A DNA stretch of 55,196 nt from the NCBI GenBank assembly GCA_016208855.1, contig JACQXF010000057.1, positions 1-55,196 on the forward strand, read 5' to 3'. This stretch comes from Nitrospirota bacterium (GTDB lineage Bacteria; Nitrospirota; Thermodesulfovibrionia; UBA6902; DSMQ01). The notes under the pieces were generated by a model that did not search any database, was not told where the DNA came from, and saw only the letters and a program-made list of their open reading frames with translations. The position numbers and the translations under genes are program-made. This document shows, piece by piece, positions 1,361 through 45,868 of the stretch (position 1 is the stretch's first letter; every line of letters begins with the position of its first letter).

Positions 1361-1366
1361 TCTTCT

Positions 1367-1408: not shown

Positions 1409-1453
1409 TAAGGGTGCGGTCAATACTCCTATCGGCGGGCGTCAATCTGCGGT

Positions 1454-2623: not shown

Positions 2624-2730
2624 AAATATTACTTTACAAAAAGTAAGACTATTTGTCAAATATAATTTATCATATGGTATTAATACTCGCCATGGAAAGT
2701 CAAAAAATCAATAGGTTAGCGGATTATTTT

Positions 2731-2782
2731 ACATACAGCCCCTTATTCCCCCTTAACAAAGGGGGAATAAGGGGCTGTATGT
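2731..2782. repeat. Perfect 22-bp-stem palindrome (acatacagccccttattccccc / loop ttaacaaa)
   Basis: Arms 2731..2752 and 2761..2782 are exact reverse complements. It belongs to the C4-6...G4-6 core family also seen at 30363..30400, 40007..40037, 41303..41355, 42036..42120 and 47197..47234. It lies just downstream of murA. Confidence 0.85.
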
Positions 2783-2906
2783 CTGAACAAGCAAAAGCCT
2801 CGGAGGCAGGCTGGATGCCTGCCGAGAATGAGACGAAAAATTAGACCCATCAGGTGTTAAGTATGCTTATGAAAAATGCGGGTTGGTTAGATTATACATT
2901 GACATC

Positions 2907-4157
2907 TTACTTCACCCTTCTTATCCTTGCGCCAAGGGGCTTGAGTTTCTCCTCTATCTTTTCATAGCCCCTGTCAAGGTGATATACCCTGTCAACAATG
3001 GTTGTGCCTTTTGCAGCAAGCCCTGCAATAACAAGCGATGCAGATGCCCTTAAATCAGTCGCCATAACAGGCGCGCCTGTTAAAGACGGAATGCCCCTGA
3101 CAGTTGCTAAAGAGCCCTGTATTTTTATATCAGCGCCCATTCTTTTCAGCTCTGCCACATGCATAAACCTGTTCTCAAATATGCTCTCTGTAATAAGGCT
3201 TGTGCCCTCCGCAATAGACATCAATGCCATAAACTGAGCCTGCATATCAGTAGGAAATCCCGGATATGGCATAGTCTTTACGTCCACAGGCCTAAGCTTC
3301 CCGGGAGCCTTGAACACTATGCCGTCCGCCTCTTCATTAATAGTCAGCCCCGCCTCTTTAAGCTTAATTATCACAGAGTCAAGATGGGGGAAATTACAGT
3401 TTTTAATCTTTATCTCGCCGCCTGTGATGCCGGCTGCAGCCATAAATGTTCCAGTCTCAATCCTGTCGGGTATCACGCTGTAGTTCAGGGGCTTAAGACT
3501 GCTTATGCCTCTTATCTTAATTACGCTTGTACCTGCGCCCTGAATATCTGCGCCCATTGATATTAATGCATTTGCAAGATCAACCACCTCAGGCTCCATT
3601 GCAGCGTTTTCAAGCACGGTCGTCCCCTCTGCAAGACACGCTGCCATCATCAGATTCTCTGTGCCTGTTACAGTGATAGTATCAAAGTAAATAGTTGCGC
3701 CTTTAAGCCTCTTTGCCCTTACCACTGCATATCCTTCTGTCAGCTCTACTTCTGCGCCCATTTTTGTAAGCCCCATAAGATGCAGGTTTATAGGCCTTGC
3801 GCCAATGGCGCATCCTCCTGGAAGCGACACCTTTGCCTCGCCCATCCTTGCCACAAGCGGCCCCAGGACGAGCACAGAGGCGCGCATTGTCTTTACAAGG
3901 TCATAAGGCGCGTCTATTGAGGTTATGTTTTCTGCTTGGAGAGAGACCTTGCCGTCTTCAATATGAAAGCCGATTCCAAGATGGGCAAGGAGTGCGCCCA
4001 TAGTTGTAATGTCTTTAAGGCGCGGAATATTGGATATAATGCTTTCTCCGGAGGCAAGTATTGCGGCTGTCATTATGGGAAGAGCGGCATTTTTTGCCCC
4101 GCCTATTGTTACTTCTCCATTTAACCGTATACCGCCTTCAATTATTAACTTATCCAC
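2907..4157 (-). CDS. murA: UDP-N-acetylglucosamine 1-carboxyvinyltransferase
   Basis: 416 aa, full-length MurA-like ([24 protein letters not shown]...). GTG start at 4157. Overlaps the prmC stop. Confidence 0.95.
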
Positions 4158-5055
4158 TGCATGCCTTCTTCTTTGCCTTTATTATCCTCTCAACTTTAGC
4201 GTAGTCCTTTATAATCTCTACGTCCGAATATCCTGAAGATTCCATTATCCCTGCGATATCTTGAGCCTGTCCCATGCCGGCCTCAAGCATGAGAGTACCG
4301 CCTTCTTTAAGAAGTCTCACAGAGGCAGGTATCAATTTTCTGTATATGCTTAAACCGTCTTCTCCACCATCAAGGGCTATTATTGGCTCCCAATTTTTTA
4401 TCTCTGGCTGAAGGTTCTTTATGTCTGCCCTCCTTATATAAGGGGGGTTGGAGATAATTAAATCAAAACTCAGCGGCGAACAGGCATCAGTAAACAATTC
4501 CCCCATTGGTTTTAACACGTCTCCATTTAAGAAGGCAATATTGCTGACTCTGTTTATTACGGCATTAGTCTTAGCATAGCGTAATGCCTCCCCGGATATA
4601 TCAACACCGCAGACAAAGGCGCGTGGGAACTCCCTCGCAATTGATATCGCAATACAGCCCGAGCCTGTACATAAATCAAGAACATCTAAGCTAACGTGAG
4701 AGGAGAACCCTTTTATGCCTGACGCCTGATGCCTGAGAGTCTTTATAGCCTCTTCCGCAAGAAGCTCTGTCTCAGGCCTGGGGATTAAAACGCCCTCTCC
4801 AACTATAAGGTTAAGCCCTAAGAACTCCTCATACCCGAGGATATACTGAAGCGGCTCATACCCGAGCCTTCTTTGGAGCATCTCCTTTAGAGAGCCTGCT
4901 TCCTCCTCGGTAAATTCAGGATTGTCCCTGAATATTTCTGTAGTATCAATATCAAGACAATGCCTTATCAGTATCTCTGCCTCTTTCTCTGCTGATTCTA
5001 CCCCGTGATGTTTAAGAGTCTTTGCAGTATCATGCAATATATTAAGCGCCTTCAT
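4150..5055 (-). CDS. prmC: Release-factor glutamine N5-methyltransferase (HemK/PrmC)
   Basis: NPPY motif (IISNPPYI) and SAM loop [11 protein letters not shown]. Sits directly downstream of prfA. Confidence 0.9.
4717..4737. repeat. Three tandem heptamers (gcctgac gcctgat gcctgag) in frame inside prmC
   Basis: 21 nt, which is 7 codons. It is the only heptamer-type coding insert I saw outside the 25-55 kb region. Confidence 0.5.
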
Positions 5056-29896: not shown

Positions 29897-31307
29897 ATTT
29901 ATTCCCTTCACTGCATTTTTGGGTTATCAGCCTATAAAGCAACCCATCTATCCTGTCAATAAGGGCCTTAAACATCCCGCCATGGCTCTTTGAGTTCCCA
30001 AAAAGCTCTGCCCTTATTTCCTGAATCTTTGGGTCATCGCACTTTTCATATGTTATGTATCCGTTCTGCATAGCGAGCCTCTCTAAAATCAAAAGTTGCC
30101 TTGCTTTTTCTGCAAATGGCATCAGCAGTTTTTTAACTCTCTCTAAGTCCAACTTCTGACCCCTGACCTCTGACCCCTGACCCCTAAGCATTTTCACAAT
30201 CTCTTTTATCATCACATAAAGGGTGCAGTATTCAAGCCCCCTTACGCCTCTGCGCCACTGCAGAAGCATTGGATTACGCCAATACCAAAGAAAGTTGCGA
30301 ATGCCAAGATTGATTAAGTCAGAACACAGAACACAGAGCTCAGAGCCCAGACTATCTTTAATCCCCCCTTGCCCCCCTTTAGCAAAGGGGGGATGGGGGA
30401 ATTTGTCTGTGTTCTGTGTTCTGTGTTCTGTGTTCTGTTCAGCAAGGTATTCCCATAAATTCCTTAAAACCATGGCGCCGTTATCATCATCTATGGTATC
30501 AAAATGTATCAATGACAATATCACTTTGCCCTTGCCAAAATTGCCCTCTATAACCGCTGGCTCATCTTTTAGCCTCTTAGGGTCAAGATTAATCTTGTAA
30601 ATTTCTTCCATAGCCTGCCAGTCCCCGTTTTCTTCAGTATCGCCAACATTTAAATCTGAACTAAAGGCATCTGGCAGCGCTTCTCCATAAGCTGCGAGTA
30701 TTTTTATCTCCTTATCATCAACCAAAAACTGTGAAGGCCACCAGGCGTTAAAGATACGTGACGAGTGACGAGTGACGAGTGACGAGTTTAAGAAATTTTC
30801 TCTACTTGTTACTCGCAACTCGTTACTTGTTACTGTATTCATCCATATAGGATGTTTATTTATGTTTAGATATATCCTTCCATTAAAGCTCGGCACCCTG
30901 TCCTTTGTCGGCTTTCTTTTCACATTCAAAAGCCCTATGCCGTCTTCTGTAGCGAGACCTGCACCCCCGCAAAAGCCAAGGTAATTGCCTCCGCTTTTCA
31001 CAAACTTTTTTACCTCTTTTATGCCGTCTTCGCCAAACGCCTTCAGCTTATTTGACGCCCAGCCTCCGGGTATAAATAATAATTTATAATCTTTGAGCGC
31101 TCCAGCCTTTATATCTGCTGAGCGGATAAGATCAAAGGGAAGATTTGAATTTGTTAATGTCTTATATGCCATCAAGCCCCACAGGAAAGACTCATCCCAG
31201 AGAAAGGCAACAGTAGAAAGTGACGAGTGACGAGTGACGAGTGAGGAGTCTTTATCTTTTAACTTGTTACTCGTTACTATTGACTTGTTACTGTATTTTA
31301 TTTTCAT
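29895..31307 (-). CDS. Class I glutamine-amidotransferase-like (BPL_N-type) domain protein, function unknown
   Basis: ...LLFIPGGWASNK...SGGNYLGFCGGAGLA... (nucleophile-elbow-like GFCGG). The C-terminal ~130-aa helical region is unassigned. Interrupted by at least 4 repeat inserts. Confidence 0.6.
   Translation of the reverse strand: MKIKYSNKSIVTSNKLKDKDSSLVTRHSSLSTVAFLWDESFLWGLMAYKTLTNSNLPFDLIRSADIKAGALKDYKLLFIPGGWASNKLKAFGEDGIKEVKKFVKSGGNYLGFCGGAGLATEDGIGLLNVKRKPTKDRVPSFNGRIYLNINKHPIWMNTVTSNELRVTSRENFLNSSLVTRHSSRIFNAWWPSQFLVDDKEIKILAAYGEALPDAFSSDLNVGDTEENGDWQAMEEIYKINLDPKRLKDEPAVIEGNFGKGKVILSLIHFDTIDDDNGAMVLRNLWEYLAEQNTEHRTQNTDKFPHPPFAKGGQGGIKDSLGSELCVLCSDLINLGIRNFLWYWRNPMLLQWRRGVRGLEYCTLYVMIKEIVKMLRGQGSEVRGQKLDLERVKKLLMPFAEKARQLLILERLAMQNGYITYEKCDDPKIQEIRAELFGNSKSHGGMFKALIDRIDGLLYRLITQKCSEGNK
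30154..30188. repeat. Tandem heptamers ctgaccc/ctgacct in frame
   Basis: ttctgacccctgacctctgacccctgacccctaag. Peptide RGQGSEVRGQK. Confidence 0.7.
30320..30440. repeat. Composite nested element: Hep-1 arms flanking a C6/G6 palindromic core
   Basis: cagaacacagaacacagagctcagagcccagac + ccccccttgcccccctttagcaaaggggggatggggg + tctgtgttctgtgttctgtgttctgtgttctgttc. Second copy at 47152..47273. Peptide ...NTEHRTQNTDKFPHPPFAKGGQGGIKDSLGSELCVLCS. Confidence 0.85.
30757..30834. repeat. Hep-2 bipartite element (GTGACGA arm / loop / TYGTTAC arm) in frame
   Basis: Arm 30757..30786 (gtgacga x4) and arm 30802..30834 ctacttgttactcgcaactcgttacttgttact. Peptide VTSNELRVTSRENFLNSSLVTRHSS. Confidence 0.85.
31218..31292. 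repeat. Hep-2 bipartite element spanning the cbiGH stop and the next ORF's start
   Basis: Arm aagtgacgagtgacgagtgacgagtgaggag and arm cttgttactcgttactattgacttgttact. Loop and arm are nearly identical to those of 31751..31807. Confidence 0.85.
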
Positions 31308-33177
31308 ATCCCCTCGGCGTTATCATCCTGCCCTGATAGAGAGATGTGTTTGAATTTCCTATTATCACTGTTGTCTGCATATCAATATCATGATTAAGCA
31401 TGTCATTCAGGTTTGTAACAACAACACTTTCGTTCTCCCTCATTGCTCCCTTTACTATGCCAACCGGAGTTTCAGGACTCCTGTATTTCAAGATAATATC
31501 TCTTGCCTTATTAATATGCTGCTGTCTGCCCATGCTCTTAGGGTTATAAAGGACAATAACAAAATCAGCCATAGCCGCAGCTTCAAGACGCTTTTCAATC
31601 AACTCCCACGGAGTCAGCCTGTCAGAAAGACTTATAGAGGCAAAATCGTGCATAAGCGGAGCGCCAAGCCTTGCAGCGCAGGCATTCAGGGCTGATATGC
31701 CGGGAATTACCTCCACAGACAGTAACAAGTGACGAGTAACAAGTGACGAGTCTTTGGAATTATTATTGTCTTTAAACTTGTTACTCGTTACTATTGGCTT
31801 GTTACTGCCTTTAAGTATCTCAAACACCAGTCCTGCCATTGCATAAATGCCCGGGTCGCCGCCGCTGATAATAGAAACTACCTTGCCTGACATTGCAAGC
31901 TCTACAGCCTTCCTGCATCTGTCCACCTCCTGAGTCATGCCTGTAGATACAACCTCTTTATCTGAAATCAAATCCTTAATCAAATCAAGATATGTGCCGT
32001 AGCCCACAATAACATCTGACTCTCTAATGGCTTTTTGCGCATATGGTGTAATGTGCTCAATGCCCCCTGGCCCTGTGCCAACGATGTAAAGCTTAGGGAT
32101 TAGGGATTGGGGATTGGGGATTGGATTTAATTTTGATTTGCTTCTTTCTAACCCCCAACCCCTAACCCCTAACCCCAGAATTTCTTTAACTGCTACTGCC
32201 ACTGTTACATTCCCATCTTTTTGTTTTGCCACCGCTAACTCTCCTTTATCTGACGCAAGTATAGCCGCTGGTTCTGCAACGCCATAGGCGCCTGTTGCCT
32301 TAAACACAGCTTCTGATTTCTCTATCCCTTCAACTGTGTTAAGCTCATTTGCTGTAAATGTGTTTATCTTAAAACCGTATTTATCTGCAAATCTTAACAG
32401 TCCTGCTTCGTTTGCCTTTAGATCTATAGTTGCTATAGAACATACGGATAGAAATGACAGGTTATTCTTTCTAAGAACTTTCCGAACAACCTCCTCTATT
32501 TCTTCTGCTGATGTCCCGCTGTTACAGCCTATGCCAAGAATAAGATTTTTGGGATGGAGATAAAGACAGGGGGTTGGGGGTTGGGGGTTGGGGGTTGCTT
32601 TATTCGTAATTATAATGTCTGCCATTACTAAATCAGTTATCTGTAAAAACTCTTCTGGAAGTCTGATGTCTGTGTTCTGTGCTCCGTGTTCTGTGTTCTG
32701 ATCAATATATACCCTCAATGCTCCACTGTTTAAAAACCTTGTTGATATTTCGGGGACTGCGTCCCAATTCTCTATGACCAAGTCATTGCCTTTTGCCCAC
32801 ATATCTATAGACGGCAGATTATTAACATCTGACGCAGTCGTAATAACAGCCTGCCCTCCCAAAAAATATGCAATCTCCTTTGTAATTTTATTCGCTCCTC
32901 CAAGATGTCCGCTTAAAAGGCTTATGATATGTTTTCCTTTTTCATCAAGCACTATAACAGCAGGGTCAGTCCGCTTATCCTTTATCAGAGGCGCAATAGC
33001 CCTGACAACTATGCCTGACGCCATGATAAAAATTAAACACTTACTCTTGTTCCATTCGCCCTGCGCCTTTTCAGCACTAAATTTAATAATCTCTGCATGA
33101 GGATAAAGTTCTTTAAGCCTTTGAGCAAGAATAAACCCGTTGTTTGTTATGTAAAAAATTGTAGTGTTAATTTTCAT
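31288..33177 (-). CDS. cbiGH: CbiG (cobalt-precorrin-5A hydrolase) fused to CbiH (cobalt-factor III / precorrin-3B C17-methyltransferase)
   Basis: N-terminal CbiG-like region (...ASGIVVRAIAPL...GGANKITKEIA...). C-terminal TP_methylase (LYIVGTGPGGIEHITPYA...GGDPGIYAMAG). 629 aa with 4 repeat inserts. Confidence 0.85.
   Translation of the reverse strand: MKINTTIFYITNNGFILAQRLKELYPHAEIIKFSAEKAQGEWNKSKCLIFIMASGIVVRAIAPLIKDKRTDPAVIVLDEKGKHIISLLSGHLGGANKITKEIAYFLGGQAVITTASDVNNLPSIDMWAKGNDLVIENWDAVPEISTRFLNSGALRVYIDQNTEHGAQNTDIRLPEEFLQITDLVMADIIITNKATPNPQPPTPCLYLHPKNLILGIGCNSGTSAEEIEEVVRKVLRKNNLSFLSVCSIATIDLKANEAGLLRFADKYGFKINTFTANELNTVEGIEKSEAVFKATGAYGVAEPAAILASDKGELAVAKQKDGNVTVAVAVKEILGLGVRGWGLERSKSKLNPIPNPQSLIPKLYIVGTGPGGIEHITPYAQKAIRESDVIVGYGTYLDLIKDLISDKEVVSTGMTQEVDRCRKAVELAMSGKVVSIISGGDPGIYAMAGLVFEILKGSNKPIVTSNKFKDNNNSKDSSLVTRHLLLSVEVIPGISALNACAARLGAPLMHDFASISLSDRLTPWELIEKRLEAAAMADFVIVLYNPKSMGRQQHINKARDIILKYRSPETPVGIVKGAMRENESVVVTNLNDMLNHDIDMQTTVIIGNSNTSLYQGRMITPRGYENKIQ
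31720..31807. repeat. Hep-2 bipartite element in frame in the CbiH part
   Basis: cagtaacaagtgacgagtaacaagtgacgag / loop / cttgttactcgttactattggcttgttactg. Peptide VTSNKFKDNNNSKDSSLVTRHLLLS. Confidence 0.85.
32092..32176. repeat. Hep-3 bipartite element (GGGATTR arm / loop / YAACCCC arm), G4-capable
   Basis: cttagggattagggattggggattggggattgg ... taacccccaacccctaacccctaacccc. Peptide GLGVRGWGLERSKSKLNPIPNPQSLIPK. Confidence 0.85.
32568..32598. repeat. Four tandem GGGGGTT heptamers in frame
   Basis: agggggttgggggttgggggttgggggttgc. Peptide ATPNPQPPTP. Confidence 0.8.
32668..32700. repeat. Hep-1 solo arm in frame in the CbiG part
   Basis: gtctgtgttctgtgctccgtgttctgtgttctg. Peptide QNTEHGAQNTD. 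Confidence 0.8.
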
Positions 33178-33305
33178 CTGAAGAACTCAATATTCTCATG
33201 ACTCTCAAAGTCCCCGCCGCTCAAAGGCTGCCCTTCAAAAATATCGGTAACAGCCCTTATGGCCTCTATCCGGTATTCCTGATTGCTGTCAAAGTGGAGT
33301 TTCAT
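33174..33305 (-). pseudogene. 43-codon stump of a Res-like (type III / helicase-type) restriction subunit
   Basis: My translation: MKLHFDSNQEYRIEAIRAVTDIFEGQPLSGGDFESHENIEFFR*. It resembles the characteristic N-terminus (F(D/E)xNQxYQxxAIxAVxxxFxGQP) of Res/DEAD-box restriction helicases. Its ATG overlaps the vsr TGA (ATGA) and its TGA overlaps the cbiGH ATG (ATGA). Confidence 0.5.
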
Positions 33306-33715
33306 GATAGTTTTTCAATTAATGATTTTTGCCATCTATCCGATTGTTTTTTTCCCAACCGGCATTGCCATAGAACAATCACTTGCCATCCGGTTTTCTT
33401 TAATTGCCGGATATTCTTTTTATCCCGCTCAACATTGCCGCTTATTTTCTTTTCCCAAAACTCCTTCCTCGTTTCCGGCAGTTGTGCCTTTTTGCAGTTC
33501 TTATGCTTATGCCAAAAACAACCGTGAATAAAAATAACGGTTTTGTATTTAGGTAGAACAATATCCGGCTTACCCGGCAAAGTCTTTACATTTTTTCTGA
33601 AACGAAACCCTTTGGAAAAGAGGAATTTTCTTACAACTATTTCGGGCTGTGTTTCATCACCACGAATCTTTGCCATTATCGCACTTCTTTTATTTTTTGA
33701 AAATATATCAACCAA
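33302..33715 (-). CDS. vsr: Very-short-patch repair endonuclease
   Basis: ...KNKRSAIMAKIRGDETQPE...PGKPDIVLPKYKTVIFIHGCFWHKH... TTG start overlaps the dcm stop. Confidence 0.9.
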   Translation of the reverse strand: MVDIFSKNKRSAIMAKIRGDETQPEIVVRKFLFSKGFRFRKNVKTLPGKPDIVLPKYKTVIFIHGCFWHKHKNCKKAQLPETRKEFWEKKISGNVERDKKNIRQLKKTGWQVIVLWQCRLGKKQSDRWQKSLIEKLS

Positions 33716-34742
33716 GATATTTGTCCAAATGTTCTTTGATGTTCATAGATTGAATGTAACTGAACCTCGGAGGAAGCGCATTGCCTATAAGCAAAGCCAA
33801 AGAAGCTTTCGGAATGTTCACCGGGAACTTGTATCTCCTCGGAAACGACTGTAACAAAGCCGCTTCCCGTGCCGTAATGACCCTGTCTTTTTCCGGATGC
33901 AAGAATCTGCCCTTTGAAGGATTCAGACAACCTCCGGTTATCGTTGATGAATAATCGTTCCACCTTAAACGACCGTATATGTCGTTAAATCCGACATTCT
34001 CCTTTTTATGGCACTCTAAAATGTATTTATCAGGCAAGTCTTTCCAACCGCCTCCGTCTTTCGGAATAAGCTGTATTCTTTCCATTACTTCGGGGGTGTG
34101 ATTAGCAGTGATCTTGTGTAAGGGGTCTTTAGTCGTTTCTATCGATTCCAATTTGCCTATGACTTCTTTTACCGTAACTTTTTCCCCGGTTCCATCAGCA
34201 ATATCCATTTCTCCCAACAAAGAACCTACCATTATCAAGCGTTTTCTATTTTGAGGCACACCGTAGTCTTTTACATTTACAATTTTCACTTTTGGACGAT
34301 ACCCAAGCGCTTCAAGTTCTTTCACAACATCTTTAAAGAGATAGTAATTGACCAGCCCCGGAACATTTTCCATCATGATTGTAAGGGGCTTCAGTTCTTT
34401 TACAAGCCTTAAATATTCCAGGATTAGGGCGTTTCGATCATCCCGAACGTTTTGTTTGCGATTCAAACGACGCACGGAAGAAAAACCCTGACAAGGCGGG
34501 CATCCTGCCAGCAAATGTAGCGACTCACCGTTTAATGCCGCAATTATTTCATCGGTGGATACCTTACGAATGTCATTTTCAATAACTTTCGTCTTGGAAT
34601 GATTCATCCGATATGCAAGCACTGCATGCTTGTCAATCTCAATCGCTACTTTTGCAGTAAAACCGGCTTTCACCATCCCTTCGGATAAGCCTCCGCAGCC
34701 TGAGAAAATGTCAATGGCATTATAATGATATATTTTTTTCAT
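33708..34742 (-). CDS. dcm: DNA (cytosine-5)-methyltransferase
   Basis: Motif I DIFSGCGG, motif IV GCPPCQGFS, motif VI MMENVPGL, motif VIII QNRKRL, motif X IGNALPP. Confidence 0.95.
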   Translation of the reverse strand: MKKIYHYNAIDIFSGCGGLSEGMVKAGFTAKVAIEIDKHAVLAYRMNHSKTKVIENDIRKVSTDEIIAALNGESLHLLAGCPPCQGFSSVRRLNRKQNVRDDRNALILEYLRLVKELKPLTIMMENVPGLVNYYLFKDVVKELEALGYRPKVKIVNVKDYGVPQNRKRLIMVGSLLGEMDIADGTGEKVTVKEVIGKLESIETTKDPLHKITANHTPEVMERIQLIPKDGGGWKDLPDKYILECHKKENVGFNDIYGRLRWNDYSSTITGGCLNPSKGRFLHPEKDRVITAREAALLQSFPRRYKFPVNIPKASLALLIGNALPPRFSYIQSMNIKEHLDKYLG

Positions 34743-34776
34743 CTATATCTCTTGTTTACTACTATATCTTCTGACC

Positions 34777-36411
34777 TTAGGTAGATGAATTTACTTTAGC
34801 ATTATCCATTCGAGTTAGTAGATACGAAACTAAACTTAAAATATTTAAACAATCCAGTTCAGTAAACAAAGCAGGAACATTGGTGTCTATTGGTCTGTGC
34901 GATATCGGATTCCTAAAACCAGTCACTACTCCTCTGGATAAATGTCCTTGACCTTCTTGAATATTTATTAGAGATTCCGTGTTCAAATCATTCAATTGTA
35001 TTTCGGGGGGAGAATTAAAGGGTTTGCTTCCAAATATGCGATTGACTAAATCACTTCCATCCTCGCTTCTACCCGTTATATTTCGAATTATTTCACAATA
35101 TATCTGAACCCCTTGACTTGCAGCATCCCCATACTGTTTGTTCGTGTAATATGCTTTAATTCTTTCTCTTATACTATTATGCAAGTGTCTCCAATGTAGA
35201 AGAGGATATTCAGGAATGATGTTATGAAGTGCTTTAATTACAGGAGTGTATTTTTCGAGAGCATCCTCTCCTCCCAATGTTTCGATAATCTGTTTGGCAT
35301 TTTCCTTTACATCATCCGGTAAACTGTTTACCCATTTTTCCGCATCAATGCCTGTCGTTTCTTTTAAATCATTAGTCTTTTTTTCTTTTCTTTTCTTTCT
35401 CCAATCGGCGTTAATTTGTGAAACTATTCCAGAAAGAAAATTTCTAAGTTTTTCCATTTCGGGGTGTTCCCAATCTATGGATTGGCGATTTGTCGAAATA
35501 ACATCTTCATCTAAAAGGTCTATAAAATCTACGCTTATCCACCCGGTAAGATATTGGTAAAAGTGACTTGATGTACTGGTTGAGAAAAATTCAGGCGCAT
35601 TAACAAGCTTTCCTCTTGAAAAAAGGGTTACCCCTCTAAGACCGGAAGAAGGCACTATGGGTTTTTCAGAAGTCAATAGTTGTCCAATAATTTTCCCGGC
35701 ATATCCAGATTCGACTGGAACCAGAAGAGGAGATTCAAGGTTCCATTCAAATTCTTTTGTAAGTAAGCCGTATTTTCTTTTATTATCTATCGAAATTCTG
35801 TCTCCCGAAGGTGATTCGAGTAGCAAATTAAAAGTCTCATCAAAAATGAATATTCGCGATAAACTATCAGCTAATCCCATAAAATCAAAAGGCGTTTTTC
35901 TTTTTAAGCCTGTCATCGTAATAACTGTACCGTCGGAATCCTCTGTGACTGTATTTATAATAGTCGCTCTTGGCCTATAACTGCCTTTCGCTGCCATTAA
36001 ATCATCCCAGTCCAAAACAAATTCATTTAGTTTCCCTGCCTGCCTAGTTAAAACAGTAACGGTCTTTGCTAATCCAAATAGGGCAAGTTTTCCGAGTCCT
36101 TTTTTCCCTGTAGGAAAACGTTTATATTTGTTAGAAGGCGTATCGCCTTCATCATTACGTCTATTGCGACCAATCACAAGAAATTTATTGCTGATTTCAT
36201 CACGTGACAGCCCTATACCGTCATCCTCAATCTTTATTTCTTTTGGGTTTCCATTTGCTTCAATTAAGGTAACGGTAACATTTGTTGCATCGGCATCATA
36301 GGAATTGGAAATAATTTCAGCCAATGCGGGTGCAAGCGTGGAATACATTCGTAATCCAAGGTGCTTGATTGTTTGGGGGTCAAACCGCATCTCAAATGGT
36401 GATTGACTCAT
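34777..36411 (-). CDS. GHKL (HATPase_c_3, MutL/MORC-like) ATPase fused to a C-terminal HEPN domain of the Ymh/TIGR02391 type
   Basis: N box ALAEIISNSYDADA, G1 IEDDGIGL, G2 GKKGLGKLALFG. C-terminus ...NIQEGQGHLSRGVVTGFRNPISHRP...LSLVSYLLTRMD, with the Rx4H dyad encoded at 34897..34914. Confidence 0.8.
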   Translation of the reverse strand: MSQSPFEMRFDPQTIKHLGLRMYSTLAPALAEIISNSYDADATNVTVTLIEANGNPKEIKIEDDGIGLSRDEISNKFLVIGRNRRNDEGDTPSNKYKRFPTGKKGLGKLALFGLAKTVTVLTRQAGKLNEFVLDWDDLMAAKGSYRPRATIINTVTEDSDGTVITMTGLKRKTPFDFMGLADSLSRIFIFDETFNLLLESPSGDRISIDNKRKYGLLTKEFEWNLESPLLVPVESGYAGKIIGQLLTSEKPIVPSSGLRGVTLFSRGKLVNAPEFFSTSTSSHFYQYLTGWISVDFIDLLDEDVISTNRQSIDWEHPEMEKLRNFLSGIVSQINADWRKKRKEKKTNDLKETTGIDAEKWVNSLPDDVKENAKQIIETLGGEDALEKYTPVIKALHNIIPEYPLLHWRHLHNSIRERIKAYYTNKQYGDAASQGVQIYCEIIRNITGRSEDGSDLVNRIFGSKPFNSPPEIQLNDLNTESLINIQEGQGHLSRGVVTGFRNPISHRPIDTNVPALFTELDCLNILSLVSYLLTRMDNAKVNSST

Positions 36412-36534
36412 TTTACACCTCCTTAAAATCTATTCCTGCATCATGCATTATTTCTTCTTTTACTTCCCATTACCTTCTTTACTTCCCTATCAAAATCGCT
36501 CTAAAACGCCACGTCCTGAACTACCCTGAATTTA

Positions 36535-37410
36535 TTATTCCTCTTCCGATTTACCAATTAATCCTTTTGCATCTTTTTCTTCCAGTTCCAGTTTAGGAGA
36601 TGCGCTCTTTACCCTTTTCTCGATAAGCTTTATATGTTCAGCAGGGGGAAGCTGTTCAGGCAGTGTGCCGCCTATACGTTTAATAGCGTCTCTAACTTCT
36701 TTACCGACGTTTTCGTGTGTCCTGATTGCTGCTTGCTGATCTTTTATATTATCTTTTGCTAATTTATCCCGCGTCTGAGTCATGCGGAACTGGTTCGCAG
36801 CTAACTCAGTTGTATCCATGCGGTCCATGAGGTTTTCTTTTTCGGGTATCCTTTTATGTTTCTTTATCTCGTCCCTGCCAAGTCCTCCATACATGCCCTT
36901 ATATCCTGCATCATGAAAAACGCCGAACATTTTATCATGAACACCAGACTGGCGGGCAGCGCCTGATAAAGCTTTAAATTCCTCGGCTGTCTGTTCCCTG
37001 AGTTCCAAACGCTCTACATCAGCAGCAATGGTATCTGATATTTCCTGTCTGCGAGCTTGGATAGCAAAATACTTCTGAGCATTGGCAATTTCCGGCTTGC
37101 GCGGATCGCCATTCTGTGCTATAAGATAACAGGCAAACCGTGACAGATGATAGTCCGTTACTTCTCGAGAGCTTCCCGACCCAATATCAACCATTTTGCC
37201 GACGTCGGCAAAATGGTTTGCAGGGATATTTCCTGATTGTTTGCAAGAGGTTAAAGCCCTTTTGATTGCATCTTCAAAGCGTCTCCATTGTGTATATCCC
37301 AAGAGGGGCTGAATTTCCCGTGCGCTCCAATATTCTGCGCCATATTCATTAAGTTTCTTCAGATCTTCAAAAGACTTGCTTCCCATTGGCACCAAACTTT
37401 TATCTGACAT
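36535..37410 (-). CDS. dinD: DNA-damage-inducible protein D homologue
   Basis: Collinear with E. coli DinD as I recall it (...GAEYWSAREIQPLLGY...SRFACYLIAQNGDPRKPEIA.AQKYFAIQ.RRQE...HGYKGMYGGL...STELAAN.FR.TQT...). Confidence 0.85.
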   Translation of the reverse strand: MSDKSLVPMGSKSFEDLKKLNEYGAEYWSAREIQPLLGYTQWRRFEDAIKRALTSCKQSGNIPANHFADVGKMVDIGSGSSREVTDYHLSRFACYLIAQNGDPRKPEIANAQKYFAIQARRQEISDTIAADVERLELREQTAEEFKALSGAARQSGVHDKMFGVFHDAGYKGMYGGLGRDEIKKHKRIPEKENLMDRMDTTELAANQFRMTQTRDKLAKDNIKDQQAAIRTHENVGKEVRDAIKRIGGTLPEQLPPAEHIKLIEKRVKSASPKLELEEKDAKGLIGKSEEE

Positions 37411-37433
37411 GTCCCCTCCTAAAATAAGGTATC

Positions 37434-37463
37434 ATTATATGCCCACATTTCATATCGTCTTAA
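37434..37463 (-). promoter_or_regulatory. Possible promoter for the dinD island
   Basis: Minus strand: TTAAGA (37458..37463) - 18 nt - TATAAT (37434..37439), then a GGAGGGG RBS before ATG 37410. No LexA box seen. Confidence 0.3.
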
Positions 37464-37520
37464 AATCCACCCCTGCATCCCGCATTTGCAATACGGGGTT
37501 TGTCTTCAACCCGAAAAAAA

Positions 37521-38276
37521 TCACTTCCTATACCCATGCTTAAAGTCCTTATCATATAATCTTGATTCTTTGCCGAGGGATGCCGCTGAAGCCTTAAGAG
37601 AATCTCCAATATAAATCAGCGCAGTCTTTTTAATGCCCGCTTCTTTAACAAGCGTATCAATATCCTTAAGCGCTCCGCGAACGATTCTCTGCTCAGGCCA
37701 TGTTGCTTCCTCAATAACTACGACAGGCGTGTCTTCCGGATAACCATCTAAAAGCTCTTTCTTTACCTTTTCAATCATCCCTACGCTAAGAAATATAATT
37801 AGCGTTGCCTTATGCTTTGCCAGTGCGCTTAGCTTTTCTGTTTCAGGCACAGGAGTCCGTCCTTCAATTCGTGTAAATATAACTGTCTGGCTGATTTCCG
37901 GTATGGTAAGCTCTTGCCCGAGTATGGCGGCCCCTGCCATTGCTGATGAAACTCCGGGGATTACTTCATATTCAATATTCAACTCCCTGAGCCTCTCTAT
38001 CTGTTCTGAGATGGCGCTGTAAAAAGAGGTGTCTCCTGTATGAAGCCTGACAACCACTCTGCCTCTGTCTACTGAATCTCTGATAATATCAATTATTTCC
38101 TCAAGGGCCATTTTTGATGAATCATATATATTCGCACTTAGGCCCTTCAGAAGTTCAGGATTTACAAGGCTTCCTGCGTATATAACCACATCCGCCTTAT
38201 CAAGCATTTTTCTGCCTTTTACAGTTATCAATTCAGGGTCTCCTGGACCTGCGCCTATAAAATAAACCTTTCTCAT
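37521..38276 (-). CDS. cbiF: Cobalt-precorrin-4 C11-methyltransferase
   Basis: MRKVYFIGAGPGDPELITVKG...LHTGDTSFYSA...IPGVSS. No repeat inserts. Confidence 0.9.
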   Translation of the reverse strand: MRKVYFIGAGPGDPELITVKGRKMLDKADVVIYAGSLVNPELLKGLSANIYDSSKMALEEIIDIIRDSVDRGRVVVRLHTGDTSFYSAISEQIERLRELNIEYEVIPGVSSAMAGAAILGQELTIPEISQTVIFTRIEGRTPVPETEKLSALAKHKATLIIFLSVGMIEKVKKELLDGYPEDTPVVVIEEATWPEQRIVRGALKDIDTLVKEAGIKKTALIYIGDSLKASAASLGKESRLYDKDFKHGYRK

Positions 38277-38977
38277 TTCCTTATTATTACCAGTGAAAAA
38301 TAATTCAGGTCTTCATCCCTTACATCATCAAGGTTTTTAAAAATCTTCTCCTCCTCCATGCCTGCCCTTGATATATATACCGACTTATCAATGAGTGCAA
38401 GTTCCCTGAGTGCAGAGCGTATCTTGTCAAACACCCTGTGCACTTTCATAAGAACGACTGTATCAAACTCTCTCAGCGTATCTTTTACATCTTCAATATA
38501 TGTGGCAGGAAGTATCGCAATCTTTTCATCTGCAAGGCCCAGAGATACCCCTGCCGCCCCTGCAGAGGCGTTAATTGACGATATCCCCGGTATAAAAACT
38601 ATCTTCGGGCATGGAGATGCCTTTATAAGTCTCTCATGCACATAAAAGAAGGTGCTGTAAATAGTAGGGTCTCCGATTGTAAGAAAGGCAACATCAATTC
38701 CGTTTTTTAATTTATTTAAAATTGCATTTGCCGCCTTTTCTTTAATGCCTCTTTTCAGACGTTCAATATTGGTGGTAAATAAATCATCGCCGACAATCAA
38801 TATTTTAGAATTTAAAATTTGTCTCTGGGATAGACTTTGAACGGCTTTATTTGTTCGTAAAATGAAACAGGATGTTTCATTGAACAAATACCTCGCAGTC
38901 AAACAGGATGTTTGACGAGAATGAGTGAAAAGGATATCCCCTGCTGTGTCTTTATCCTTCATTGTCTTTCCCCGCAT
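38273..38977 (-). CDS. cbiL: Cobalt-factor II (precorrin-2) C20-methyltransferase with a divergent N-terminus
   Basis: Core ...DVAFLTIGDPTIYSTF...IPGISSINASA...LMKV... is CbiL-like. The N-terminal G-loop is degenerate (DTAGDILFT instead of GxGPGDPxLLT). Alternative start at ATG 38962. Confidence 0.75.
   Translation of the reverse strand: MRGKTMKDKDTAGDILFTHSRQTSCLTARYLFNETSCFILRTNKAVQSLSQRQILNSKILIVGDDLFTTNIERLKRGIKEKAANAILNKLKNGIDVAFLTIGDPTIYSTFFYVHERLIKASPCPKIVFIPGISSINASAGAAGVSLGLADEKIAILPATYIEDVKDTLREFDTVVLMKVHRVFDKIRSALRELALIDKSVYISRAGMEEEKIFKNLDDVRDEDLNYFSLVIIRK
38861..38916. repeat. Twin hairpins sharing the 13-nt repeat aaacaggatgttt, inside the cbiL 5' region
   Basis: aatgaaac-aggat-gtttcatt (38861..38881) and gtcaaac-aggat-gtttgac (38898..38916). 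Confidence 0.7.
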
Positions 38978-40251
38978 ACTATGAACACAGGATTTAAGGC
39001 GCTGAGATGCCTCTTGCCTCCGATAGTCTTTGACCGCGATATTGAGACCTCTGTAATCTCAACGCTAAACCCTCTGTCTTCAAGGCATCGTACTGCCTCG
39101 TTTAAAGTCTCAATGGTTGCAGCATTTACTACAACAATCCCTGAAGTCATTTTTTCTTTAACTACATCAAGAATCTCATTGAGCCTCCCCCCGCTTCCTC
39201 CTATGAAAACCCTGTCTGGCTGAGGAAGCTCAGAAAGCGCCTCAGGCGCTTCGCCTTCTATAATTTTTATAGCAGCAATATTAAATCTATCTTTATTTTT
39301 TTTGATGTTTTCAATCTGCTCTTTATTCTTCTCTACGGCAAAGGCCTTTAGCCCGCGGCACAACCTGACTGCCTCTATGGATACAGAGCCTGAGCCTGAG
39401 CCTATGTCCCAAAAGACGCCGCCTTCCGGGAGCCTTAACTTATGAATAGTTATTGCCCTTGCTTCGTCTTTGGTTATCAACCCTCTTGAATGCGATATCT
39501 CATTTTCCTTTAACCCAAATCCTATTTTTAACCCCTGATCCCCAATCCCTAACCCCTGTATTATCACCAAATTCGGCTGTTGAAAAGACATCTTAGCAAT
39601 CTCCTCTGGCGCGCCCTCTGTAATTTTCTCATCAGGATATCCTAACTTTTCGCATACATATACCATCAGTGACGAGTGACGAGTAACAAGCGACGAGCTA
39701 AGGACTTTTGCTATGGCTGATGGATTATTTTCTTTATCAGTAAGAATAGAAATTTTATTATGCCTCTGAAGCAATGCAGGAATATCTTCTATCTCATACT
39801 CAAGCCGCCTTCTCTTTTTGGGATCAGGGCCTCCATGAAGGCTTATAAACAGAGCATCAGACCATACCTCTTTTATTCTTGAGAACGCTGTCTGTGCGCT
39901 TGAGAGATCAGGCAGTATTTCTACTTTGTCCTTTCCAAATTCCTTTATTGCCCTTCTTCCAATCCCAAAAAATAGGGGATCGCCAGAAGCCAATAGAACA
40001 ATTCTTACACACCCCTGCACCCCTCTTTTTAGAGGGGAATGATTTGAAATTTGGGATTTAATGAAATCTATCGTATCATCCACATTATTTATCACCTTAA
40101 CCTTATCCTTAACTTTTTCAAACTCATTGTATCCCTCAAACACCTCCATAAGCCTGTTGTTCGCAAGGATAACATGAGAATTCAATACAATCTCCCTTGC
40201 CCTCTCATCAAGAGGCCTGAAGCCAACGCCTATAACATAGAGTTTACTCAC
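38959..40251 (-). CDS. cbiET: CbiE-CbiT fusion (cobalt-precorrin-6/7 C5,C15-methyltransferase, decarboxylating; CobL-like)
   Basis: N-terminal CbiE (SKLYVIGVG...LASGDPLFFG) and C-terminal CbiT SAM-MTase (VFWDIGSGSGSVSIEA). GTG start at 40251. Three repeat inserts. Confidence 0.85.
   Translation of the reverse strand: MSKLYVIGVGFRPLDERAREIVLNSHVILANNRLMEVFEGYNEFEKVKDKVKVINNVDDTIDFIKSQISNHSPLKRGVQGCVRIVLLASGDPLFFGIGRRAIKEFGKDKVEILPDLSSAQTAFSRIKEVWSDALFISLHGGPDPKKRRRLEYEIEDIPALLQRHNKISILTDKENNPSAIAKVLSSSLVTRHSSLMVYVCEKLGYPDEKITEGAPEEIAKMSFQQPNLVIIQGLGIGDQGLKIGFGLKENEISHSRGLITKDEARAITIHKLRLPEGGVFWDIGSGSGSVSIEAVRLCRGLKAFAVEKNKEQIENIKKNKDRFNIAAIKIIEGEAPEALSELPQPDRVFIGGSGGRLNEILDVVKEKMTSGIVVVNAATIETLNEAVRCLEDRGFSVEITEVSISRSKTIGGKRHLSALNPVFIVCGERQ
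39529..39558. repeat. Hep-3 solo arm (C-rich on +) in frame in cbiET
   Basis: taacccctgatccccaatccctaacccctg. Peptide QGLGIGDQGLK. Confidence 0.75.
39667..39697. repeat. Hep-2 solo arm in frame in cbiET
   Basis: cagtgacgagtgacgagtaacaagcgacgag. Peptide SSSLVTRHSSLM. Confidence 0.8.
40007..40037. repeat. C4/G4 palindromic core (acacacccctgcacccctctttttagagggg) in frame in cbiET
   Basis: Same sequence as 42036..42066. Peptide SPLKRGVQGCV. Confidence 0.75.
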
Positions 40252-40358
40252 TGCCTGCGATTACCTCGCCTTCATAAGATATAAGATAGACAATAACAGG
40301 AGCCCCTGCTGTTATTGTCTCTGCATAGTTTTTAGCTGCATTACAAACCGCTCTGAAA

Positions 40359-40393
40359 AGTTTTGAGTTTTGAGTTTTGAGTTTTGAGTTAAC
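40359..40393. repeat. Tandem heptamers gttttga x4 in frame in cbiD
   Basis: Peptide NSKLKTQNSKLF. Related array at 49611..49652. Confidence 0.75.
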
Positions 40394-40429
40394 AAAGTCA
40401 AATATTTCCCTTGCTGTATTGAATTCTTT

Positions 40430-40463
40430 CCCCAATCCCCAATCCCCAATCCCCAACCCCTCC
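40430..40463. repeat. Hep-3 solo arm (ccccaat x3) in frame in cbiD
   Basis: Peptide EGLGIGDWGLGK. Confidence 0.8.
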
Positions 40464-40896
40464 AAAAACTCTGCCGCCTTCTTTACATCAATTGCTCCGT
40501 GCCGTACATGAGTCTGCGGGGTTGACATGGCAATTTTTAGCATCTTTGCCCATTGAGCGCATAGATGTATCTTCTCAAACCCGTGTTTTTTAGCCTCCTG
40601 CAAAGAAAACTCCAGATAATCGCCCATCATGACATAAGACTCTTCAGGAAGATGAAACCTCTCCATGTGGGCCCTCTCAGATGTCCTTCCTGCAGAAAGA
40701 ACAATCTCTTTATGTCCCATTGCCTTTGCCACATCCATAGATGATGTAATAGTGGCTGTCCATGCCTCTGTGGATATCGGCCTAACAATGCCTGTTGTGC
40801 CGAGTATGGATATGCCTCCGATTATGCCTAATCTTGGATTAAGGGTTTTTTGGGCCAATTCTTCTCCCTCGGTGACAGAGATGGTTATTTCAACGG

Positions 40897-40970
40897 CAGA
40901 ACTCAGAGCCCAGAGCCCAGAGCCCAGATTGTTTTTGTCTGTGTTCTGTGTTCTGTGTTCTGTGTTCTCC
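40897..40970. repeat. Hep-1 bipartite element in frame in cbiD
   Basis: cagaactcagagcccagagcccagagcccagat / tgttttt / gtctgtgttctgtgttctgtgttctgtgttctcc. Peptide ENTEHRTQNTDKNNLGSGLWALSS. Confidence 0.85.
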
Positions 40971-41100
40971 TTAATTGCTTCCCTCACCGCTTCCTCTATC
41001 ATCCTTCGCGGCACAGGATTTATGGCTGCCTCTCCAATCGGCATCGGAAGTCCAGGCTTTGTGACAACACCGACCCCTTTACCGCCTTTGATAATTAATC

Positions 41101-41122
41101 CTGTCGCACTGTCGCACTGTGG
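41101..41122. repeat. 8-bp tandem duplication (gtcgcact x2) at the cbiD frameshift site
   Basis: ctgtcgcactgtcgcactgtgg. Confidence 0.8.
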
Positions 41123-41195
41123 CGCTAATCTTTGCCCTATTAGTTACATCCGGATCATCCCCTGCGTCTTTTATCACAGAGGCATAAGCTGTTTT

Positions 41196-41232
41196 ATCCT
41201 GAGTCCTGTATCCTGAATCCTGTATCCTGAAT
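41196..41232. repeat. Tandem atcctga/gtcctgt-type heptamers in frame in cbiD
   Basis: atcctgagtcctgtatcctgaatcctgtatcctgaat. Peptide FRIQDSGYRTQDK. Confidence 0.7.
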
Positions 41233-41269
41233 TTATGCCTGCTGCCATCAGGAAAAGGAATCTCTACCT

Positions 41270-41375
41270 CAGAACTCAGAGCCCACAGCCCAGAGCCCAG
41301 ACTTTCACCCCCTCCCTTACCCTCCCCCCTCGAGGGGGAGGGGTGGGTGAGGGGGCTGTGTTCTATGTTCTTAAG
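41270..41375. repeat. Composite element: Hep-1 arms around a C/G-rich palindromic core, in frame in cbiD
   Basis: cagaactcagagcccacagcccagagcccagac + caccccctcccttaccctcccccctcgagggggaggggtgggtgaggggg + ctgtgttctatgttc. Confidence 0.8.
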
Positions 41376-41450
41376 CAAAAGCGTCACCGCTGCCTTTGCC
41401 GCCGCAGCAGCGCAAGCTCCTGTTGTATATCCTGAGCGTAGTCTCTTTTT

Positions 41451-41486
41451 GTCTGTGTTCCGTGTTCTGTGTTCTGCGTTCTGCAT
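41451..41486. repeat. Hep-1 solo arm that supplies the cbiD start codon and first 11 codons
   Basis: gtctgtgttccgtgttctgtgttctgcgttctgcat. Peptide MQNAEHRTRNTD. Confidence 0.8.
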
Positions 41487-45640: not shown

Positions 45641-45868
45641 GGAACGAGAGGTCTTCCGGCTCAGGGCTTCCTACTTGCCAACCTTCCCATGCCGAAGCTT
45701 CGGCACAGTGGCTTTAGAAGCAGGTTGAGGTTGAGGTTTAGGTTGAGGCTAAGTAAGAATCTTCTGAACCTTAACCTTATCCTTGACCTTATCCTGTTTT
45801 TTCAGGCTTTCGTTCCCTTTACGGCTGCGGGACAGCAGGGGATTTTCACCCCTTTCCGCTTCATCATT
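45641..45868 (-). promoter_or_regulatory. Cobalamin (B12) riboswitch controlling the OM channel-cbiMNQO operon
   Basis: Minus strand reads ...GGAAAGGGGTGAAAATCCCCTGCTGTCCCGCAGCCGTAAAGGG... (45811..45860), GCCACTGTGCCGAAGCTTCGGCATGGGAAGG (45682..45712), and a B12-box-like GAGCCGGAAGACCTCTC (45646..45662). Confidence 0.85.
45721..45795. repeat. Hexamer-built inverted repeat inserted in the variable loop of the riboswitch
   Basis: caggttgaggttgaggtttaggttgaggct / aagtaagaatcttctg / aaccttaaccttatccttgaccttatcct. Confidence 0.8.

Follow-up and report, generated by a model that had tools for sequence, protein, structure and literature searches.

We examined a stretch of 55,196 nucleotides from a Nitrospirota bacterium (contig JACQXF010000057.1 of assembly GCA_016208855.1; hereafter, the window), in which the cobalamin biosynthesis genes cbiF and cbiG are separated by a block of 4.3 kb. 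This block carries a dinD-like gene followed by three genes, here called the triad, for a GHKL ATPase fused to a HEPN domain (GHKL-HEPN), a C5 cytosine DNA methyltransferase (Dcm) and a very-short-patch T:G mismatch endonuclease (Vsr), and it is bounded by stumps of the mod and res genes of a Type III restriction-modification (R-M) system. With a probability of about 0.8, we consider that the 4.3 kb derives from a composite R-M/defence operon, a fragment of which was acquired by horizontal transfer and has partly decayed, with the workings proposed below. The triad is an already recognised and widespread module, described computationally only (paraMORC-Ymh or R.NmeAIP type); what is new is the recognition that a larger composite operon, mod - slot - GHKL-HEPN - dcm - vsr - res, was trimmed down to this insert. 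It represents a clean, well-delimited piece of a defence island inside a riboswitch-headed biosynthetic operon, with neither neighbour broken. In addition, the triad passes between phyla nearly unchanged, its proteins retaining 65–94% identity in different phyla, and its logic, a restriction-enzyme-like sensor fused to a predicted RNase, is directly testable.

The block between cbiF and cbiG

When one genome per species was scanned for CbiF, 80 loci were retrieved, nearly all from metagenome-assembled genomes (MAGs) of Nitrospirota/Thermodesulfovibrionia with 71–80% CbiF identity; 77 of the loci were informative. As expected from an earlier note on this DNA, made from the letters alone, which held cbiF and cbiG to be normally contiguous, cbiG (or cbiGH) starts at most 150 bp past the cbiF stop codon in 65 of the 77 loci, often overlapping it; another insert of 1.3–2.7 kb occupies the junction in four loci, and cbiG is not downstream in the remaining eight. 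The island genes were found in none of these 77 Thermodesulfovibrionia loci. Alignment with the closest relatives, where cbiG starts inside the end of cbiF or a few nucleotides past it, allowed us to place both edges of the insert. By comparison with the spacers of loci L006 and L005, the native sequence of the window breaks off ~8–11 nt past the cbiF TGA and resumes at ~33181, with TCAGATG, immediately ahead of the cbiGH start codon. The insert (~33182–37512, 4.3 kb) is thus seated in a cbiF-cbiG spacer of about 10 nt, with intact cbi coding sequence on either side, and an empty site would be expected to join the end of cbiF directly to ...TCAGATGAAAATTAAC. The block proposed in the earlier note (33174–37410) is therefore real, but it is better bounded at ~33182..37512, and it contains two mod 3' remnants that had been missed.

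Gene calls from the open reading frame (ORF) list and three profile libraries (Pfam, NCBIfam and PADLOC) confirmed that four complete genes and one stump lie between cbiF and cbiGH in the orientation of the operon; all genes of the window from ~28 kb to 55 kb are on the minus strand. The upstream native flank is cbiF (37521..38276, minus strand), for precorrin-4 C11-methyltransferase (TIGR01465, 342.7 bits against a cutoff of 259.65), whose product is 80% identical to CbiF from Thermodesulfovibrionia MAGs. There follow, on the same strand, an intact dinD-like gene with a Bro-N domain (36535..37410; NF008573, 366 bits against a cutoff of 242; PADLOC candidate PDC-S13, E 1.8e-112); the intact gene for the 544-aa fusion of a paraMORC-like GHKL ATPase with a C-terminal Ymh-type HEPN domain (34777..36411; Pfam and NCBIfam domains); an intact dcm (33708..34742; PF00145, E 1.9e-60; TIGR00675, 162.5 bits); vsr, with a TTG start (33302..33715; TIGR00632, 143.2 bits against 97.85, positions 1–118 of 119); and a 43-codon ORF (33174..33305) with an N-terminal match to PADLOC REase_III (E 3e-6), in agreement with its previous labelling as a Res stump. 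The downstream native flank is a cbiG-cbiH fusion (31288..33177, minus strand) with CbiG_N, CbiG_mid, CbiG_C and TP_methylase domains. Residues 9–279 of the DinD-like product align to positions 8–285 of the 288 in NF008573, so that this gene is a full-length, equivalog-level match to E. coli DinD/PDC-S13.

The composition of the block is also deviant, if not uniformly so. The GHKL-HEPN gene has a GC content of 0.374 and a GC3 of 0.283 (z = −3.4 against the 46 other window genes), and, among 3.3-kb stretches of the window, 33205–36527 deviates most in its tetranucleotides (L1 distance 0.332 against 0.182 ± 0.032; rank 1 of 104). The AT-richer segment noticed earlier corresponds to the GHKL-HEPN gene, and the GC content of dinD and dcm is ordinary.

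Positions 36527..33205 of the window are 91% identical at the DNA level, over 3.3 kb, to positions 1068..4391 of locus L001, a copy that adjoins mraZ-rsmH-ftsL. The 90%-identity clusters of the flanking rsmH and mraZ are named Thermodesulfobacteriota, Desulfovibrionales or Deltaproteobacteria, and we thus assign the host of L001 to Thermodesulfobacteriota, that is, to another phylum. The L001 copy is likewise GC-poor with respect to its flank (0.40 against 0.47), and the Vsr proteins of both loci are 95% identical. Together, synteny, tetranucleotide composition and this cross-phylum match support the earlier suggestion of a foreign, methylation-linked module inserted between cbiF and cbiG. Against L001, dN/dS was 0.15 in GHKL-HEPN, 0.08 in dcm and 0.19 in vsr, and on this measure all three triad genes are under purifying selection. 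The module itself appears to be mosaic, or recombined, because dS against this closest outside copy is four- to six-fold higher for dcm (0.74; window 33708–34742 against L001 2854–3888) than for its neighbours in the same pair of loci (0.19 for GHKL-HEPN and 0.12 for vsr).

Short tandem repeats also set the insert apart from its surroundings. TRF reported ~40 arrays of period 7 (at least 3.5 copies) in the 25.5–54.7 kb portion of the window, or ~1.6 per kb, and none in 33182–37512, as had been noticed for the coding sequences of the island. We estimate that ~7 arrays would be expected in the insert (Poisson P ~1e-3), a value that is approximate because cbiF and cbiL carry none either. A supposed tacttcc-type array at 36463..36490 could not be upheld: TRF reports nothing there, and a heptamer-type origin was discarded, with the stretch being part of the imported leader. 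It is kept in the homologous leaders of L001, L086 and L095 and therefore arrived with the block. The heptamer arrays of the window (25531–54730) have ~4.3–4.7 copies each and belong to families that include TCTGTGY, AGTGACG, CAGAGCC and GGGATTG. Many of them are in frame in cbi and neighbouring genes, where they result in peptide inserts such as NTEHRTQNTDK or SLVTRHSSL; the first 25 kb of the window lack such arrays, and similar inserts occur in relatives, e.g. L005 and L020.

The acquisition had also been called recent. Acquisition is supported, but its recency is only relative, with no empty site among genomes closer than ~82% CbiF identity. A protein search with CbiF for an empty site in a close relative retrieved a single near-identical protein (P0122), on contig L085, which also carries dinD; the next matches show at most 82% identity. 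The island is present on the sole near-identical contigs, L085 and L131 (run SRR12113402), and exact look-ups of the DinD and CbiGH products matched no record.

Profile searches found no integrase or transposase gene in the 4.3-kb insert, there are no tRNA genes in the window, and the longest word common to both junctions has 7 nt. We consequently rejected a site-specific integrative element; the one repeat of note brackets dinD inside the insert. The cbiF-cbiG junction nevertheless seems to be a recurrent landing site in this clade, as suggested by four other relatives that hold unrelated cargo there. With respect to the contents of such gaps, that of L008 harbours two toxin-antitoxin pairs (HEPN/MNT and Xre/RES), that of L012 an AAA_14/DUF4143 ATPase and a small HicB-like ORF, that of L015 an ABC transporter, and that of L022 a RhuM-family gene. 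A duplicated cbiF 3' fragment accompanies the AAA_14/DUF4143 ATPase cargo.

Stumps of mod and res at the edges of the insert

In L001, the gene after vsr, joined to it by an ATGA overlap as in the window, encodes a Res of 899 aa that contains the domains ResIII, DEAD and RE_endonuc. Blastn against this gene identified the right edge of the insert (33182..33305, minus strand) as its remnant: 33205–33305 corresponds to res nt 1–101 (95 of 101 identical), and 33182–33198 corresponds to nt 2448–2464, a patch inside the RE_endonuc domain (16 of 17 identical), with native DNA beyond. The res gene has thus suffered an internal deletion of ~2.3 kb and the loss of its 3' end; what remains are 34 N-terminal codons and a short piece of the nuclease domain.

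The left edge of the insert is the 3' end of mod, a Type III-like N6_N4 methylase gene, of which 19 codons and the TGA persist (37450..37509, minus strand). This stump, found by tblastn with Mod from L002 (a match to PF01555), begins ~11 nt past the cbiF stop and encodes LKTNPVLQMRDAGVDFKTI*, with 84% identity to the C-terminal 19 residues of the L002 protein (E 6e-5). The corresponding nucleotide alignment spans 41 nt, and its score was reached by none of 2000 shuffles. Alignments to the leaders of L002, L101 and L001 revealed a second, older and decayed mod 3' remnant (~36448..36416, within 36409..36449), fused to the start codon of the GHKL-HEPN gene and common to L001, L086 and L095. In this case, 10 of 2000 shuffles reached the score with the window leader and none with that of L001. 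Paired with each other, the two remnants make up the highest-ranking direct repeat of the region (family D1; 41 nt, 76% identity, 36409–36449 and 37446–37486), and its copies bracket the dinD cassette.

The relatives of the block show how these pieces were arranged. Mod directly precedes and overlaps the GHKL-HEPN gene in L002, L087 and L124, and lies one or two ORFs upstream in L088 and L101, where other genes fill the slot between them; downstream of vsr, a complete Res is encoded in L001, L088 and L101. In L095, a dinD copy (86% protein identity) is directly upstream of GHKL-HEPN, and in L119 a DinD-like gene is found inside a Type I R-M system, beside Dcm/GHKL-HEPN. The ancestral order in this sub-clade, as read from these comparisons, is mod - variable slot - GHKL-HEPN - dcm - vsr - res. 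Type III restriction is dead in the window since both partners are reduced to stumps, with a 43-codon ORF in place of an intact Res and the last 19 codons in place of an intact Mod. Likewise, res is cut after eight codons in L086 (93% identical), which represents an independent loss. In L086, the triad is flanked on both sides (1–430 and 3535–3619) by sequences with AAGGATGGGT, and these flanks may be a small repeat element.

The triad, its proposed workings and the alternatives

The GHKL-HEPN protein contains an HATPase_c_3 domain at residues 26–162 (E 3e-23) and a HEPN domain at residues 408–537 (Hypoth_Ymh, PF09509, E 8e-22; TIGR02391, 106 bits against 39.45). The residues of the GHKL motifs ExxxNxxD, DxGxG and the G-rich lid (E32, N36, D39, D63, G65, G67 and G102–K108) are invariant in 32 homologues and the window, as are R500, P502 and H505 of the HEPN Rx4-6H motif, which reads R500-N-P-I-S-H505 in the window. 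An AF2 model of moderate confidence (pLDDT 76.7) matched, in Foldseek, Hsc82, TRAP1, MORC2, MORC3, SMCHD1 and the 43K fragment of GyrB over ~390–430 columns (E ~1e-13 to 1e-11; target-normalised TM up to 0.5–0.59). The modelled fold thus corresponds to a GHKL plus transducer (S5-like) module as in Hsp90, MORC and GyrB, within the moderate confidence of the model. Residues 6–379 also match positions 1–398 of the 659 in NF050001 (BbrUII/HgiDII), at 219.7 bits for a cutoff of 550, while positions ~400–659 are unmatched and have HEPN in their place. The protein therefore looks like an effector-domain swap on a restriction-enzyme chassis rather than like a member of the BbrUII/HgiDII family. The Dcm translation has the motifs FSGCGG, PCQ, ENV, QNRKR and GNALPP, and these catalytic motifs, together with the above-cutoff Vsr score and the overlap of both genes, identify a Dcm/Vsr pair. 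Among solved structures, GHKL-HEPN retrieved only weak HtpG sequence matches and DinD none; those of Dcm were DNMT1, M.HaeIII and M.HhaI, which do not reveal its target.

A protein search with GHKL-HEPN yielded 2499 relatives at E ≤0.001 among the scored candidates. The top 120 have ~545 aa, both domains and 67–94% identity, and they come from very diverse phyla, including Parcubacteria, Planctomycetota, Desulfobacteraceae and Delongbacteria. We examined 47 loci, eight of which were on contigs that are too short; a co-oriented Dcm was directly adjacent, in either order, in all 39 with flanking DNA. Vsr was frequent among the examined loci without being universal, and Mod and Res occurred only in the sub-clade nearest the window. 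Indeed, L090, L107, L118, L121 and L128 have GHKL-HEPN and Dcm with no Mod, Res or even Vsr nearby, which makes the pair independent of the Type III partners. Neisseria gonorrhoeae and Burkholderia carry the same module with an adjacent Dcm, and their records are annotated as 'putative membrane protein' or not at all; for instance, N. gonorrhoeae L129 contains Dcm, GHKL-HEPN (40% identity, full length) and Vsr (59%). We also considered a phage vehicle and rejected it: a single-protein scan of viral contigs gave no loci and a profile scan only one, with 54% identity, and tblastn against phage records produced partial GHKL matches only, one of them annotated 'ParaMORC3'. The triad is typically not phage-borne.

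The nearest known system is the NmeAI-type module of Neisseria (M.NmeAI, Vsr and the putative R.NmeAIP), with the same three genes, the same two-domain architecture and R-M neighbourhoods. In 2008, R.NmeAIP was noted to combine GHKL with Hypoth_Ymh at its C-terminus (PMC2441816), and Anantharaman et al. predicted in 2013 that paraMORC-Ymh HEPN fusions in R-M neighbourhoods are PrrC/RloC-like RNases (PMC3710099). M.NmeAI targets CCGG, methylated at C5 to C5mCGG (PMC4676702), and both systems are known as predicted restriction/RNase systems only. Unlike the NmeAI type, the triad of the window is nested between Type III mod and res stumps, behind a dinD-like cassette and inside a biosynthetic operon. 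The BbrUII/HgiDII Type II enzymes share the N-terminal ~380 residues (GHKL and middle region) and also have a C5-methylase partner, but their C-terminal ~260 residues, presumably the DNase part, are replaced by HEPN in the window protein; the partial matches H7 and H8 adjoin annotated cytosine methyltransferases. PrrC and RloC anticodon nucleases likewise have an ATPase fused to a HEPN-type RNase in an R-M locus, with the RNase checked by, or backing up, DNA restriction (PMC3710099); in the window, however, the ATPase is GHKL and not ABC, the partner is a C5 methylase and not a Type I enzyme, and a PrrC/RloC-style tRNA target is not known. The stumps of the window derive from the N6_N4 Mod and the ResIII-DEAD-RE_endonuc Res of a Type III system (Mod and Res, EcoP15I-like), full versions of which occur in L088, L101, L001 and L002; unlike in typical Type III systems, the intact relatives have mod and res 3–8 kb apart, with other defence genes in between. 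Finally, the E. coli dcm-vsr pair also consists of a C5 methylase gene followed by an overlapping vsr, whereas the pair of the window belongs to a mobile three-gene module with an ATPase-HEPN partner.

In the scheme that we propose, the enzymatic activities, the Dcm target and the RNase trigger are inferred, as is co-transcription with the cbi genes. Dcm would methylate a short host motif at C5, marking self DNA, and Vsr would repair the T:G mismatches that arise from 5mC deamination at Dcm sites, limiting the mutagenic cost of methylation. GHKL-HEPN would be the 'restriction' arm, an ATP-driven dimerising clamp whose first ~380 residues are homologous to BbrUII/HgiDII enzymes; it might sense unmodified target DNA and then fire its HEPN RNase rather than a DNase, so that the outcome would be translation shut-off or abortive infection and not DNA cleavage. 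That GHKL-HEPN is a methylation-gated RNase giving abortive-infection-type protection is a tentative proposal, for which we would give slightly less than even odds. If so, the surviving GHKL-HEPN/Dcm pair would provide autonomous methylation-gated RNase immunity, as predicted in 2013, a reading of lesser novelty than that of the palindrome described below.

How the insert might be expressed depends on its setting. A cobalamin riboswitch ~8 kb upstream (45651..45857, minus strand; Rfam RF00174, 41.2 bits against a gathering threshold of 31.5) heads a co-directional cbiM-cbiQ-cbiO-cobA-cbiD-cbiET-cbiL-cbiF array on the same strand as the island. The stop/start overlaps pointed out previously are present in the sequence: 8 nt between the dcm stop and the vsr TTG start, and ATGA overlaps for vsr/stump and stump/cbiGH, the cbiGH ATG overlapping the TGA of the stump. 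The only minus-strand terminator match in the insert is the coding sequence of the dcm PCQ motif, and none was credible. Because the genes are co-oriented, with no convincing terminator and with this chain of overlaps, read-through into cbiGH is plausible: the insert would be expressed at least in part from the riboswitch-headed cbi operon, passing transcription and translation on to cbiGH. A promoter of its own had been proposed at 37434..37463; a sigma-70-like candidate does exist there, upstream of dinD (minus strand; TTAAGA-18-TATAAT, 10 of 12 matches), but the region contains 15 promoter-like sites against 18.1 ± 4.4 in shuffles, no more than chance would give. Co-transcription with cbiGH, which the earlier note took to be necessary, is plausible rather than certain; were it to occur, B12 could control the methylation and defence genes, and transcription would have to cross foreign DNA before cbiGH could be expressed.

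Two other roles for the triad have to be weighed against a methylation-gated RNase. Dcm and Vsr could be a solitary epigenetic and repair module, a domesticated orphan methylase, with GHKL-HEPN inert or unrelated to restriction and the island neutral or mildly useful. This is unlikely, yet deserves attention: neither nuclease-bearing Type III partner survives as more than a stump, this family is not known to have a phage-defence phenotype, and effects on fitness have been documented for solitary cytosine methylases that have Vsr-like partners (PMC12907096). Nevertheless, GHKL-HEPN is intact, with all catalytic motifs and a dN/dS of 0.15, and it is the GHKL-HEPN plus Dcm pair that is conserved in the 39 flanked loci, often without Mod, Res or Vsr. 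The latter fact also bears on a MutL-like role, in which GHKL-HEPN would be an accessory ATPase that stimulates Vsr in very-short-patch repair instead of a restriction or abortive effector. Such a helper would fit a gene that sits with dcm and vsr, and the N-terminal GHKL domain of MutL binds and stimulates Vsr in E. coli and N. gonorrhoeae, according to PMC2715241 and PMC6116569. We nonetheless consider it quite improbable, because many loci have GHKL-HEPN and Dcm with no Vsr within 5–10 kb, the invariant Rx4H motif of HEPN would go unexplained, and the N-terminal 380 residues are homologous to those of bona fide restriction enzymes (NF050001).

The foreign origin of the block has rivals of its own. 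It could be ancestral, i.e. native to this lineage at this site and lost from the sampled relatives, as would befit a block carried by the only near-identical contigs when the nearest other relatives have just ~80–82% CbiF identity. However, this would need losses in all 77 informative relatives of a segment whose composition stands out in the window, whose DNA matches that of a locus of another phylum at 91% identity, GC-deviant there as well, and whose end genes are cut exactly at the cbi gene boundaries; we deem an ancestral block extremely improbable. A contig mis-joined at repeats, in which the island would not truly lie between cbiF and cbiGH, is very improbable too. The window is rich in short repeats, and it differs within cbiL from contig L085, which has 350 bp (1209–1560) where the window has an unrelated segment of 91 bp (38736–38827). 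Yet Logan contigs L085 and L131, which come from a different assembly pipeline and overlap each other, match 40035..33276 of the window at 99.9–100%, except in cbiL, and reproduce the cbiF-dinD junction and the interior of the block. In addition, the junctions lie away from repeat arrays, and the res stump passes seamlessly into a homologue of the relatives' native cbiF-cbiG spacer.

Several points nevertheless weigh against an acquired and still functional defence fragment. Both contigs may stem from the sample that also gave the window, and L131 stops at 33276, 100 nt short, which leaves the stump/cbiGH junction without an independent contig. No integrase, tRNA or flanking repeat accounts for the entry of the fragment. 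The purifying selection measured against L001 could largely pre-date the insertion. The cbi operon itself looks damaged and may be decaying, with a frameshift that splits cbiD and a cbiL 5' region replaced relative to L085, so that selection for operon continuity is not assured. As for function, the RNase/abortive-infection step is predicted from domain homology only, our literature search (Ymh/PF09509, paraMORC) yielded no activity measurement for any GHKL-Ymh protein, and, with res and mod gone, the block may be an orphan methylase and repair pair with an idle GHKL-HEPN.

The dinD palindrome and other features of the window

The dinD-like gene of the block contains a perfect 15+15-nt (30-nt) palindrome, AACCATTTTGCCGAC|GTCGGCAAAATGGTT (37189..37218), which encodes NHFADVGKMV and is the only perfect palindrome of the window with arms of at least 10 nt. 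We surveyed the palindrome in loci L133–L212, L213–L292 and L333; in 46 of 49 distinct DinD-family genes with 36–86% protein identity, it is kept at the same codon boundary, with compensatory changes. On average, 12.2 of the 15 pairs are formed at that boundary in the 49 genes, against 3.76 ± 1.66 at 11,413 other codon boundaries; 10 of the 15 are preserved in E. coli dinD. Compensatory triplets include GCC/GGC, CGT/ACG, GTT/AAC and CCC/GGG, a synonymous Asp codon covaries with Val/Ile, and the compensatory changes even force paired amino-acid substitutions. There were 115 double-change cells, for 37 ± 5.6 after shuffling, and the covariation was 0.426 against 0.158, with none of 500 shuffles reaching either value; slid controls gave 0.05–0.13. 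As indicated by the compensatory changes, the palindrome is a genuine element on which selection acts at the nucleic-acid level throughout the DinD family.

We rejected an mRNA hairpin, since the mismatches show no excess of G.U (25) over A.C (29) and no Rfam family matched the palindrome. In its motif form, CAYTTTNNNGAS|STCNNNAAARTG, it extends beyond dinD: the motif CATTTTNNNGACGTCNNNAAAATG is present in at least 120 viral contigs, with most sites outside DinD-like genes, and this type of palindrome recurs in non-coding parts of phage genomes. Of 97 distinct sites, 61% have NNN triplets that complement each other. Some of the viral sites form tandem arrays (L219 1373–1468, L220 5941–6003 and L259 9566–9661). 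The palindrome might be a DNA hairpin, a cruciform or a symmetric site bound by DinD-like (PDC-S13) proteins, acting as a self-encoded operator and a phage-borne signal; this specific reading is decidedly unlikely, but, if true, it would supply a sensing logic for a widespread and unexplained passenger of R-M loci. DinD-like genes recur between R-M core genes, as listed in PMC9881135 and seen in L119, and the palindrome offers an unexpected lead on the role of these dinD-family 'passengers'. Among the phage sites, a DUF3800-VIII RNA lies near the palindrome in L259 (10116–10179) and L220 (6883–6946), and in L213 the palindrome lies between the major capsid gene and a Mu-gpT-DE RNA (7165–7217).

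Two genes of the cbi array upstream of the insert themselves look altered. The cbiD gene is split into two minus-strand ORFs in different frames (41079..41486 and 40244..41044), and the frame shift coincides with an 8-bp tandem repeat, CTGTCGCA, in 2.5 copies (41101–41120); this split could be a pseudogene, a phase-variable site or an assembly error. In the case of cbiL, the segment in L085 encodes a normal CbiL N-terminus (GVGPGDPELLT, with the GxGxGD motif) and a repeat insert, whereas CbiL from the window is devoid of its first ~85 codons, i.e. of the SAM-binding N-terminus. The difference may be either a strain polymorphism or an assembly difference.

Elsewhere in the window, a group II intron domain match occurs near its end (55059–55135, minus strand; RF00029, 49.1 bits), beside a very AT-rich ORF (54105–54506, minus strand; GC 0.318, GC3 0.261). 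A second repeat family, of period 9/18 (GTTCAAACN / GTTTAAACC) and distinct from the heptamer arrays, is found mostly at gene boundaries, at 28206–28284, 50586–50846, 52916–52978, 54044–54095 and 54508–54537.

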